Source of the DNA: Staphylothermus hellenicus DSM 12710
GTDB taxonomy: Archaea; Thermoproteota; Thermoprotei_A; Sulfolobales; Desulfurococcaceae
DNA: 32,000 bases
NCBI RefSeq assembly: GCF_000092465.1
Contig: NC_014205.1
Coordinates: 960,001-992,000 of the forward strand
Direction: 5' to 3'
The position numbers were made by a program, and so were the translations under genes. Below, piece after piece: positions 6,631 through 31,088 of the stretch (position 1 is its first letter; the number at the start of each line of letters is the position of its first letter). Under the pieces are notes generated by a model. It was not told where the DNA came from. It ran no database searches and saw nothing but the letters and a program-made list of their open reading frames with translations.

Positions 6631-6730
<100 letters not shown>

Positions 6731-23411: not shown

Positions 23412-23458
23412 ACCTAGTTAATAAACAATATTAGGATATAAGTTATAAATGATTGTGT

Positions 23459-23531
23459 AGAGGCGGAGCCCTCGCCCGCCAGAGGCTCCCGTTGTAGGGA
23501 GAGCTATGATGGCGGGTTCCGTCGGGCGGCA
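23459..23531. ncRNA. G+C-rich structured element (candidate small RNA or 5' leader), family unknown
   Basis: About 69% G+C by hand count (51 of 74 nt), with AT-rich flanks. Helices: GGAGCC 23465-70 with GGCTCC 23484-89; CTCCC 23486-90 with GGGAG 23497-501 (mutually exclusive with the first); CCCGCC 23475-80 with GGCGGG 23511-16. TATA-like boxes lie on both sides. Confidence 0.4.
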
Positions 23532-23554
23532 TATATCTTTCAATTGTTGCTGAA

Positions 23555-24103
23555 TTGGTGGGCCTATTGCCTAGGAGATACCGTGTTGAAACATATAGTG
23601 GAGACATGATAGTTGCTGAAATAATCGATAATGGTAAACAAGAAGTCATAGTTAAGTTGCCGGGTTTGAAGGGAGAGATAAAGGCTAGAATAAAGAAGAT
23701 AGTTGATGAAAACACTATTCTTGTAGAAATAAATGATAAAATATATAGAGTATATATGAGTGGGGATGGGATCCTAATAAACGATGAAGTATCTCTAATC
23801 AATAAAATAATTGAATTAATACCTATTGGGCTAAAATCAAGCTATTCAGAGAAAAAGATAACCACTATTATTAGGAAAGGAGAGATAAGAGCCCCATTAT
23901 CAGGTAAAATCATTGATATAAAAGTTAAACCCGGAGATAAAGTATCATTTGGAGACGTTGTAGCTTTAATGGAGTCTATGAAAATGGTTACCGAGATCAA
24001 AAGTGACGTAGACGGTATAGTAGAGGAGGTACTTATAGAAAAGGGTAAAGCTGTAAATAAAGGTACATTGATTATGCGTATAAAACCATTAGAGAAGAAG
24101 TGA
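23555..24103 (+). CDS. biotin carboxyl carrier protein / biotinyl-domain subunit
   Basis: The C-terminal biotinyl domain is IRAPLSGKIIDIKVKPGDKVSFGDVVALMESMKMVTEIKSDVDGIV, with the MKM biotinylation motif. The start is uncertain (TTG 23555, GTG 23558 or ATG 23606). Confidence 0.8.
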   Translation: MVGLLPRRYRVETYSGDMIVAEIIDNGKQEVIVKLPGLKGEIKARIKKIVDENTILVEINDKIYRVYMSGDGILINDEVSLINKIIELIPIGLKSSYSEKKITTIIRKGEIRAPLSGKIIDIKVKPGDKVSFGDVVALMESMKMVTEIKSDVDGIVEEVLIEKGKAVNKGTLIMRIKPLEKK

Positions 24104-24230
24104 ACTGCTCCCTGCGTAAGCGGGGAGTTTCTCCCGTTCCACCCGCCTTCACGGCATGGGGGTTTCATCTGGGAGTTTTGGGGGGTTCACGGCTCCCCTA
24201 TCCCATGCCTCCCATTAAGGCATGGGCTAT
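24104..24230. ncRNA. G+C-rich structured element between convergent genes, family unknown
   Basis: Helices: GGCATGGG 24153-60 with CCCATGCC 24202-09, enclosing GGGAG 24171-75 with CTCCC 24193-97. An alternative pairs CCCATGCC with a second GGCATGGG at 24219-26. CTCCC 24108-12 or CTCCC 24131-35 can each pair with GGGAG 24123-27. One G:U extension favours the + strand weakly. Confidence 0.45.
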
Positions 24231-24345
24231 ATTGATTATATCATCCAAATTTCTATACGGGAACATCCCGAAAAACATTAGTTTACCAGTATATTTAAAC
24301 CTTACGGAAAGGGGTCTTACAAGCGACGGGAAGATAAAACATATG

Positions 24346-29405: not shown

Positions 29406-29861
29406 TTATTTTCGCCTATAAATGCCTCTTCCCTGCCTATAGAATCCTCGCCTACGTGAACCAAATCCTCTTGTATTAGGTGCTGTTGGTTGATCTTCGG
29501 GTATTTCTTCTGCTGAAGGAACTTCTTTATAGTCTACTTCGCTAACCTCAGTACTCCTCCCAATATTGATCTGGACTTTTCCACGATAACTAGTTGTCCA
29601 AGCACCTTTTATATCTACAACTTTGTCTTCTTCAAGAGTCCCAGCTTTACTACCCCATAGTGTTGCATTTACTCTGCCTGTTTCATCTCCAAGCACAGCA
29701 TTACTAATTGTTCTAGGCCCTTTCCTTGTCTGGATTACTTTGGGCGGAGATGTTTCTAGTACTCTAGCAGTTATATGTACTCCTTCTTCACCATCTTTTA
29801 GATCTATAATGTTTTTCTTAGGAGAAGATGAGGAATTTATTATATCTGACTTTTCGGACAT
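29406..29861 (-). CDS. ssb: crenarchaeal single-OB-fold single-stranded DNA-binding protein
   Basis: HITARVLETSPPKVIQTRKGPRTISNAVLGDETGRVNATLWGSKAG...IKGAWTTSYRGKVQINIG closely parallels Sulfolobus SSB. It has an RG-rich C-terminal tail. Confidence 0.9.
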   Translation of the reverse strand: MSEKSDIINSSSSPKKNIIDLKDGEEGVHITARVLETSPPKVIQTRKGPRTISNAVLGDETGRVNATLWGSKAGTLEEDKVVDIKGAWTTSYRGKVQINIGRSTEVSEVDYKEVPSAEEIPEDQPTAPNTRGFGSRRRGFYRQGRGIYRRK

Positions 29862-29927
29862 TACGTGTTTCGACTCCTATACGAGTTATGTATATGGGTT
29901 CTGACTATATTATGAGGAACAGTAGGC

Positions 29928-29935
29928 TTTAAATA
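29928..29935 (+). promoter_or_regulatory. candidate TATA box (TTTAAATA) for the downstream G+C-rich RNA
   Basis: TTTAAATA lies about 30 nt upstream of the point where the G+C-rich structured region begins (about 29964). It sits in the divergent intergenic region with ssb. Confidence 0.35.
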
Positions 29936-29963
29936 TTTCGGATTATATTTTTAATATTGGTTT

Positions 29964-30155
29964 GTGTCCCTATGGGTTGATGGGAGCTATGCTCCGAGAC
30001 CCATGGGGCTTGCTGTAGATGGGAGGCCCGTGCCGTTGGCCTCGACAGCCGCCCATGACCCCACAACCCTCTTTTAGGGTTGTGGGAGAGGTGGAAGTCC
30101 CTACCGTAGATATAGCCAAATATATAAACACACAGAATGATACGGTAGGGGCAAA
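29964..30155 (+). ncRNA. highly structured G+C-rich RNA candidate (about 190 nt), family unknown
   Basis: H1 is a 10-bp helix, 29968-77 with 29999-30008 (one U:G favours the + strand), enclosing hairpin GGAGC-TAT-GCTCC (29983-95) and a UGAUG/GAG internal loop. H2 is GAGGCC 30023-28 with GGCCTC 30038-43, inside ATGG 30019-22 with CCAT 30053-56. H3 is a perfect 11-bp hairpin, 30060-70 with 30076-86. H4 is a 12-bp helix, 30097-108 with 30141-52, around an AT-rich 32-nt loop. Confidence 0.55.
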
Positions 30156-30282
30156 CGGTTAATATATATTTAGGGTAGGAACATATAATGCTATTTTCGA
30201 AGCATTTATATGTTTTGTTTCGTAGGAAATGTTTACATATATTGTTTATCTGGTATTGTATTTAATGATGATATATGTGTCT

Positions 30283-30440
30283 GTGCCCAGTATGTAGTGG
30301 GAGAATTAGCATCGAAAGGGCACTCAGGCTGGAAGCTTGCTCAGGATGAGGGGTGTATCTGTTCTCCCTGAAATGAGAATAGAGAGGGGAAGGCTGGCCA
30401 TAACTTTTGTTGTTTTTGCTACAGCTGGCTAGAACGGTAA
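30283..30440 (+). ncRNA. second G+C-enriched structured RNA candidate, family unknown
   Basis: GTGCCC 30283-88 pairs with GGGCAC 30318-23. TCAGG 30341-45 pairs with CCTGA 30367-71, with an ATGA bulge and a G-rich extension. CTCAGG is directly repeated (30323-28 and 30340-45). T-tracts at 30405-08, 30413-17 and 30468-73 could terminate a + strand transcript. The only ORF here (30262-30459, minus) looks spurious. Confidence 0.4.
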
Positions 30441-30632
30441 TCATTCGATATAGATCCATATGTGTTATTTTTTCTAAAAATCAAGCTCCTAGCTTATCTA
30501 GAAAGAGCGGTTTTTAGATAGCATGTTTATCAACGTATTTATCCCTATATACAAATACATTTATATAATGGTATAAGTGAATGGGAGCCAGGATGTTTCC
30601 TTATATTCTAGGTTTTCAATATAGAAAGTGAT

Positions 30633-31088
30633 CTATGTAGGATTGATCTTTGTTATTATTTCTTCTATTATAGACTTACATTTTTGAATGGTTTTTCCAC
30701 AGTAGAAGAGGTGGGAAAGGTCTTTGGGCTTGTCGCTGCAGCCAAAACCTTTTATTGGTTCTAATACGTTGGTTAGGGTTCTTGATAGGAATGATTCATA
30801 GTCGAAGCATTTATTTCTGGAGCATTCTATTATTAAATAATCTATGATCTCGGCCTGTCTACATGTTAGCAGATAATCTATGTGCCAAAACAGTTTCTTT
30901 CTTTTTCCAAGATGCCTCATTATTCTAGAATATAATCCGCCTTTTCCAAGAGCTGAACCTAAATATATGTAGATGCCTGGTTTTATATTGAATATTCTCC
31001 CGCTCCTAGTAGTTATTCTACATGTTTTTCCCACTTTTATGAATAAAACATAGTATCCTTTACTTTTCGGGATATCGTATTTACTCAT
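30633..31088 (-). CDS. DUF123 / GIY-YIG-like (Uri superfamily) putative endonuclease
   Basis: KGYYVLFIKV...GIYIYLGSALGKGGLYSRIMRHLGKRKKLFWHIDYL matches the DUF123 signature (G-x-Y-x-Y-x-GSA ... R-x-x-RH ... WHIDYL). Confidence 0.7.
   Translation of the reverse strand: MSKYDIPKSKGYYVLFIKVGKTCRITTRSGRIFNIKPGIYIYLGSALGKGGLYSRIMRHLGKRKKLFWHIDYLLTCRQAEIIDYLIIECSRNKCFDYESFLSRTLTNVLEPIKGFGCSDKPKDLSHLFYCGKTIQKCKSIIEEIITKINPT

Follow-up and report, generated by a model that had tools for sequence, protein, structure and literature searches.

Results

The intergenic region upstream of ssb

The window, by which we mean the whole 32,000-nt stretch of Staphylothermus hellenicus DSM 12710 DNA that was analysed, carries on its minus strand an ORF (29406-29861) that is 100% identical to the OB-fold SSB of S. 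hellenicus and is separated by 771 nt from a DUF123 gene. The corresponding gap measures ~90-96 nt in S. marinus F1 and in two Staphylothermus MAGs, and the homology between S. marinus and S. hellenicus (89% identity) that runs from ssb up to 29917 resumes only within the DUF123 gene at ~30654, so that the candidate described here lies within S. hellenicus-specific DNA. The candidate is a G+C island (29964-30155) with a G+C content of ~49% in 200-nt windows and a peak of 68% in 80-nt windows, against a mean of 36.8% for the window as a whole. When folded, the plus strand of 29960-30160 reached -89.6 kcal/mol compared to -66.2 ± 4.8 kcal/mol for dinucleotide shuffles (n = 200), a z-score of -4.93 with none of the 200 shuffles folding as well; the minus strand gave z = -4.37. 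The single-sequence fold of the window copy includes a perfect 11-bp hairpin (30060-30070/30076-30086). A sequence-only reading of this DNA had described the segment as a G+C-rich, densely base-paired RNA candidate preceded by a promoter, and on these points it was right: the plus-strand fold is far below that of the controls, all four helices that it had drawn are present, and a TATA box (TTTAAATA, 29928-29935) lies in front. The output of a bacterial promoter/terminator scan was disregarded, as such a scan is inapplicable to an archaeon.

The same reading had found no ORF, had assigned the RNA to no known family and had proposed searches against Rfam and among relatives. Searching the whole window with Rfam 15 at the gathering score yielded only a tRNA elsewhere and zero matches in the candidate, and at E <= 10 over 29850-30500 there was one noise match only, RAGATH-35. 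No ORF longer than 53 aa overlaps 29964-30155, and two spurious ORFs inside the RNA, once looked up, had nothing on record. Exact 21-mer comparison with viral contigs and blastn against a phage collection gave no match either. The claims of no ORF and no known family nevertheless stand only in part: the segment is the dead remnant of a tnpB C-terminal coding region (see below), and the RNA, absent from Rfam as it is, is assignable to a class already known, that of the omega/reRNA guide scaffolds of TnpB nucleases.

In 59 ssb loci fetched for Desulfurococcales and related organisms, and additionally in S. marinus, neither nhmmer nor blastn detected a counterpart of the RNA beside ssb. The ~30 nt directly upstream of the ssb start (29862-29893, TACGTGTTTCGACTCCTATACGAGTTATG) are 84-100% identical across several Desulfurococcales genera (loci L001-L027) and, judged by this conservation, may serve ssb as a leader or regulatory element, whereas the remaining intergenic DNA is not conserved.

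Homology to the 3' ends of tnpB genes

A sensitive blastn search with the intergenic DNA against plasmids returned a single match, the 3' end of a TnpB gene on Pyrococcus abyssi plasmid pGE2 that is annotated as 'IS200/IS605 family accessory protein TnpB-related protein'. With relaxed scoring, positions 29978-30176 (~200 nt) are colinear with the last ~170 nt of pGE2 tnpB plus ~30 nt downstream, and in this alignment each helix is preserved despite the differing sequence. The pGE2 protein, for which a protein search retrieved 923 homologs, belongs to a TnpB family of ~432 aa that includes ISDka1 orfB (Desulfurococcus) as well as members from Thermogladius, Aeropyrum, Vulcanisaeta, Caldivirga and Pyrococcus, and that has D186, E274 and D359 as invariant acidic residues of the RuvC type. 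The homologous segment was present at the tnpB 3' end in all 80 of the metagenome loci that were fetched. An nhmmer profile built from 77 sequences, each comprising the last ~190 nt of a ~432-aa tnpB and the transposon right end (RE), and from which the window had been excluded, matched 29968-30158 over model positions 1-192 (E = 1.5e-43), with no second match anywhere in the window. Homology thereby refines the boundaries of the RNA from 29964-30155 to 29968-30158.

In the resulting 78-row alignment, conservation ends sharply after ...AGGGACAAACGG (...AAACGG), and the sequences beyond are unrelated between elements; in the window copy this RE terminus is at 30158. Among the 69 relatives with a traceable tnpB frame, the tnpB stop nearly always ends 10 nt before the end of RE, the stop codon TAG of full-length elements being located in the 3' strand of the fourth helix (H4). 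In full-length relatives the last ~180 nt of tnpB together with a further 10 nt encode the RNA, which terminates at the RE sequence ...AAACGG. Overlap with the tnpB 3' end, abutment on RE and a variable flank beyond define the position of a TnpB omega RNA, or reRNA (PMC8612924, PMC10055086), and the segment thus occupies that position.

Two metagenome loci harbour partial, degenerate copies of the same RNA, both on the minus strand and both without the first helix (L076:935-1076 and L134:274-404), the former located where a truncated tnpB-like frame from another subfamily ends. Decayed remnants of the scaffold module thus also occur. Among the matches listed, sequence identity within the TnpB family is 73-81% between hosts labelled Thermoprotei, Archaeoglobales, Hyperthermus and an Asgard MAG (Freyrarchaeum), and falls to about 56-60% when the Thermococcales plasmid copy is compared. 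Such values suggest frequent horizontal transfer among hyperthermophiles.

A conserved RNA structure

The features of the locus are compiled in Table 1.

Table 1. Features of the IS607-type mini-element and its right flank (positions in the window)
Feature	Position	Strand	Description
Left end (LE) remnant, IS607-type	29916..29967	+	matches LE of full-length relatives
Very probable omega RNA (reRNA) scaffold = RE	29968..30158	+	four conserved stem-loops, invariant 3' tail AAACGG
H1	29968..30008	+	lower stem 29968-29978/29998-30008, internal loop, upper stem 29983-29987/29991-29995
H2	30023..30043	+	30023-30028/30038-30043; loop ends in invariant CCGUU (30033-30037)
H3	30049..30094	+	basal stem 30049-30057/30087-30094 (CCNCC/GGUGG), hairpin 30061-30067/30079-30085
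H4	30097..30152	+	30097-30107/30142-30152; variable A/U-rich loop
3' flank, putative guide position	30159..30178	+	TTAATATATATTTAGGGTAG, directly 3' of RE

The consensus structure comprises 47 pairs in six helices, for which covariation was assessed over the 78 sequences. Standard pairs occupy 96.9% of the cells, compared to 33-47% when the partners are slid by 1-3 columns; both sides of the pair are altered in 32 of the 47 pairs (9-18 in the slid controls) and in 455 cells (41-95 in the slid controls), and none of 500 column shuffles reached the observed covariation values. The changes are spread over the structure, with both partners altered in 10 of 11 pairs of the H1 lower stem (93.4% of cells paired), in 5 of 6 pairs of H2 (98.6%), in 6 pairs of the two H3 helices (98.4% and 96.7%) and in 9 of 11 pairs of H4 (97.1%). 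Since these compensatory changes lie within a coding region and are inexplicable by protein constraint, they reveal a conserved RNA. G-U pairs are abundant (for example, columns 108-141 are U-G in 65 rows) and compatible with the tnpB-sense strand only, which corresponds to the plus strand of the window and agrees with the orientation proposed by the sequence-only reading.

The terminal part of the H2 loop (CCGUU, 30033-30037) is complementary to the tail AACGG (30154-30158) in 76-78 of the 78 sequences, and the two segments plausibly form a candidate pseudoknot next to the guide, for which covariation lends no support because both segments are invariant. A lower stem of H2 (GCUGU/ACAGC) that appears in the single-sequence fold is not preserved in relatives and was excluded from the consensus. 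All family members contain the motif GAUGGGAG twice, in the window at 29976-29986 and 30015-30025, where it opens the H1 upper stem and H2, respectively, and both times it encodes DGS in the protein frame; as read from this repetition, a hairpin module may have been duplicated within the scaffold. The mini-element described below further suggests that the 5' end of the mature form of the RNA is the first base of H1.

A gene-less mini-element of the IS607 type

In full-length relatives tnpB is directly preceded by a gene whose product has an HTH_17 and then a Resolvase domain and, judging from this domain order, is an IS607-type serine recombinase, TnpA. These elements are ordered as LE, tnpA (HTH and serine recombinase), tnpB (~432 aa) and RE. 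At their left ends the flank gives way to GGGGCAGAAACnn-TTAAATAT-TTCAAATTATATCATTTTGTATCGGAGAATAGCAG and then to the ATG of tnpA (i.e. the element begins with GGGGCAGAAACnnTTAAATATTTCAAATTATATCATTTTGTATCGG...), and the window reads GGAACAGTAGGCT-TTAAATAT-TTCGGATTATATTTTTAATATTGG at 29916-29959. The LE of the window copy consists of the terminal GG (29916-29917), the TATA box of the tnpA promoter noted above and a piece of the tnpA 5' leader, and the spacing from the terminal GG to TTAAATAT is 13 nt in the window and in the relatives alike. Only 7 of 13 positions of the LE terminal motif match the left end of one full-length relative (L073), and this divergence makes mobility doubtful. The junction between LE and scaffold lies at about 29960-29967, from where homology switches directly to the first base of H1 at 29968, tnpA and the whole of tnpB upstream of the scaffold being deleted. 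Delimited in this way by comparison with its relatives, the insertion is a 243-nt gene-less mini-element (29916-30158) in which an LE with the tnpA promoter is fused to the scaffold and RE.

The element is bordered by GG at LE and by GG at RE (30157-30158) and is inserted at a GG dinucleotide immediately before the ssb promoter, which is ~20 nt from LE. The insertion site is empty in S. marinus F1 and in the two Staphylothermus MAGs: in S. marinus, AAGAGGGG is directly joined to TTAATATA, with TTAATATAAT following the GG, and the window resumes with TTAATATATAT after RE, the first ~10 nt of the 3' flank matching the S. marinus empty site. The flank sequence itself (TTAATATATATTTAGGGTAG) occurs only once in the window. 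Thus, the target is a GG site, without a target-site duplication, and we found no inverted repeat joining 29916-29930 to 30145-30158. GG target, GG termini and lack of duplication are the published behaviour of IS607 elements (PMC6188088), and the window element follows these rules for ends and target, terminal inverted repeats being absent as well. It lacks the serine-recombinase gene that defines such elements, and with tnpA deleted it is a non-autonomous derivative. With both ends present and no protein-coding gene between them (no ORF >53 aa), it has the make-up of a standalone, PATE-like element.

An independent read set of the same organism (Logan SRR3925462) yielded two contigs that end within the element, L066 coming from the ssb side and stopping at 29997, L148 coming from the DUF123 side and stopping at 30079. 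The intervening 29998-30078 is unassembled in the SRR3925462 contigs, which fits a repeat and a coverage gap over the most G+C-rich part alike; the left contig stops at 29 nt past 29968, as expected for a repeat boundary at k = 31. A second copy identical through 29998-30078 would share the stop codon located there (see below) and would thus not be an intact tnpB. The other end of the same contig (L066/L148) is at ~24264, near another G+C island at 24100-24235.

To the right of the mini-element, ~470 nt (30159 to 30632-30654) are absent from S. marinus and the Staphylothermus MAGs, and this extra DNA replaces the last codons of the DUF123 gene. It includes a second G+C-richer stretch (30280-30400) that is unstructured, with z about +1.1 on both strands; its ORFs had zero Pfam matches, and the stretch itself has no similarity to the fetched loci. 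Directly past RE, positions 30165-30179 of the putative guide flank (TATATTTAGGGTAGG) are 87% complementary to the 5' strand of H4 (30100-30114), the flank featuring a near-copy (TAGGGTAGG) of the H4 3' strand (TACGGTAGG, 30141-30149), and pGE2 has TTAGGGT about 11 nt past its own RE. This likeness between flank and H4 may have arisen by chance, may reflect an alternative pairing or may be what is left of an older right end.

A dead tnpB frame with an intact RNA

The family protein consensus reads ...GDGSxAPSPxGLxVDGSPVPLGSTATHDPIxIPKSLWARWKSLP..., and in the window the former tnpB frame reads ...VDGSYAPRPMGLAVDGRPVPLASTAAHDPTTLF before a stop. The frame is disrupted by an upstream TAA, by an in-frame TAG in the H3 hairpin (30075-30077, spanning the hairpin loop and the first base of the 3' arm) and by a frameshifting 1-nt deletion. 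The RNA, on the other hand, forms 46 of the 47 consensus pairs (family mean 45.5, range 41-47) and differs at only 4 of the 83 columns that are >=90% conserved; two of these four are the two sides of a single pair that changed from G-C to U-A in a compensatory manner. From these comparisons, tnpB coding is dead in the window copy, and its RNA is as intact as the copies attached to live genes. The insertion is young, as it is absent in the sister species and hence younger than the split of S. hellenicus and S. marinus, and the intact structure may reflect this recency rather than selection.

Other features of the window

The G+C island at 24100-24235 (+) begins directly after the stop of a biotin/lipoyl-like ORF, and its fold consists of four strong hairpins (-61.1 kcal/mol, z = -3.1), with no match in Rfam and none in the plasmid collection. 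A short G+C island (up to 68%) at 23448-23540, with TTATAAAT ahead and AUGAUG inside, has a modest fold (z about -1.8 to -2.0 on either strand) and no Rfam match, and may be a small RNA. The tRNA detected by Rfam is a gene with a 26-nt intron at 6631-6727 (+; 56.2 bits), and ARAGORN reported no tRNA over the whole window.

Discussion

Homology to the tnpB 3' end and RE, a conserved structure on the sense strand, and an abrupt end at RE with a non-conserved flank beyond all point to a guide scaffold of the TnpB type. Because no tnpB is found in cis in the window, the copy is a standalone one, and we conclude with high confidence that this stretch represents the omega RNA (reRNA) scaffold from an IS607-type element that has lost tnpA and tnpB. 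The covariation, taken together with what is known from other TnpB families, argues that the 3' region of the ~432-aa TnpB family would yield an omega RNA, and by the same analogy the 3' flank would act as its guide. There is published precedent for PATE elements that have no genes but encode omega RNAs (PMC10691335, PMC10055086), and for standalone omega RNAs that act in trans (PMC10691335).

The strong fold, the lack of an Rfam family, the promoter in front and the position beside ssb would also suit a novel structural or regulatory RNA of the host that has nothing to do with mobile elements, and the sequence-only reading leaned this way in presenting a structural RNA candidate next to ssb. 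We nonetheless consider such an RNA very improbable: nothing like it adjoins ssb in the 59 Desulfurococcales loci and in S. marinus, the insertion is a mobile element that the sister species lacks, and the end-to-end homology that the RNA shares with hundreds of transposons, at their tnpB 3' ends and RE (seen with pGE2, in the 80 loci and in the profile match), refutes it. Still less credence, next to none, can be given to a drastically reduced RNase P-like RNA or to a K-turn RNA bound by L7Ae. The words GAGGUGGAAGUCC and ACAGAA do resemble CR-I and CR-V and flank both strands of one helix, but no RNase P model of Rfam scores even at E <= 10, the CR-I-like GAGGUGGAAGUCC is a conserved word of the TnpB-family RNA that also codes for ...ARWKSL..., and ACAGAA lies in the variable H4 loop without being conserved in the family, so that the sequence-only reading had rightly turned this resemblance down. 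Its suggestion of a K-turn/L7Ae-like site in H1 fared less well: the internal loop of the window copy is indeed GAUG/GA, but the 3' side of this loop is AA in 68 of the 78 members and GA in the other 10, leaving the tandem G.A unconserved, and the geometry read from the window copy misfits the consensus K-turn. Both variants are refuted at the level of family membership.

A different matter is whether the standalone scaffold is an inert relic, i.e. a decayed IS607 copy with no effective transcription or TnpB partner that is intact only by recency, and this we regard as quite possible, if somewhat short of probable. In favour of a relic, the insertion is S. hellenicus-specific, its tnpB frame is dead, the LE terminal motif has diverged, partial degenerate copies exist in other metagenome loci (L076:935-1076 and L134:274-404), and no S. 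hellenicus TnpB of the ~432-aa family was among the best 120 matches listed in either of two protein searches; IS elements find no mention in the S. hellenicus genome paper. Set against decay are the perfect consensus TATA box that is retained at a workable distance from helix 1, the retention of 46 of the 47 pairs and of 79 of the 83 highly conserved columns (one difference being a compensatory pair), a G+C content that is still high in a 37% G+C genome, and a deletion endpoint that coincides with the first base of helix 1. That the mini-element is a working, promoter-equipped guide-RNA gene, used in trans or, without a family TnpB, exapted by the host, appears unlikely to us; in the exapted form, the RNA could possibly be a structured divergent transcript that acts on the adjacent ssb promoter, ~20 nt from LE.

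In S. hellenicus, tnpA and nearly all of tnpB were lost by an internal deletion, and the tnpA promoter now lies ~30 nt upstream of the first scaffold helix. If the standalone omega RNA is expressed, it might work as follows. From the LE TATA box, centred at ~29931-29932, transcription is predicted to start at ~29958-29960, i.e. 8-10 nt before H1, such that the primary transcript would approximate the scaffold itself and read into the flank TTAATATATATTTAGGG (TTAATATATAT...) as guide. The standalone omega RNA could be loaded in trans by a compatible TnpB made elsewhere, which could then cleave the allele that lacks the element (GG with the same flank behind it), favouring homing or retention of the element, a role shown for IS605-type TnpB (PMC10055086). 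Without such a TnpB, the RNA would be a young, still-intact relic.

The closest known systems are standalone omega RNAs and PATE-like derivatives of IS200/IS605 elements (PMC10691335, PMC10055086), which likewise consist of ends and scaffold with no effector or transposase gene, and as in those systems the window element would need a TnpB in trans. Unlike PATE-like elements, it derives from an IS607-type (serine recombinase) element, resides in a hyperthermophilic crenarchaeon and has the transposase promoter of its LE fused directly to the scaffold. It shares with ISFba1, whose reRNA is derived from RAGATH-18 (PMC11061315), the descent from an IS607-type element with a TnpB RNA-guided nuclease, and the two scaffolds are of similar size (187 nt in ISFba1, PMC11061315, and 191 nt in the window), each with several stem-loops, abutting RE and with the guide beyond. 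The TAMs reported for other IS607 TnpBs are G-rich (AGGAG or GAGGG; PMC11061315), and the empty site corresponding to the window element, with ...AAGAGGGG (GAGGGG) followed by TTAAT, can be set beside them. In contrast to ISFba1, there is no sequence or Rfam similarity to RAGATH-18, the TnpB of the window family is longer (~432 aa versus ~390 aa), and the tnpB ORF contains all of the scaffold but its last 10 nt. The omega RNA of ISDra2 TnpB (PMC8612924) is comparable in arising from the tnpB 3' end plus RE, in taking its guide from the RE flank and in serving homing or retention, whereas ISDra2 has the ends of a Y1-transposase (IS200/IS605) element, another RNA fold and TAM, and a bacterial host. 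Haloarchaeal sotRNAs (RF02656, RF02657; PMC12558985) and Sulfolobus SisTnpB1 (bioRxiv 10.1101/2023.03.06.531077) provide archaeal precedents of TnpB-associated, sense-overlapping guide RNAs, but belong to different TnpB clades, and the RF02656 and RF02657 models fail to match the window. Thus, the locus presents an unannotated archaeal omega RNA family in a promoter-plus-scaffold mini-element, which is a known kind of element and no new type of RNA.

For annotation, the locus illustrates that a G+C island in the A+T-rich genome of a hyperthermophile is sometimes a transposon guide-RNA module rather than a host RNA gene, and that such a module, being covered by no Rfam model, is left unannotated. 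For a very widespread family of ~430-aa TnpBs, the alignment defines how the omega RNA is structured and where exactly its 3' boundary lies; this is a family with >900 homologs in Thermoprotei, on a Thermococcales plasmid and in MAGs labelled Archaeoglobales and Asgard. The S. hellenicus mini-element is a natural promoter-plus-scaffold unit of this family, and the hyperthermophile origin of the family may interest those who search for compact, thermostable RNA-guided nucleases.
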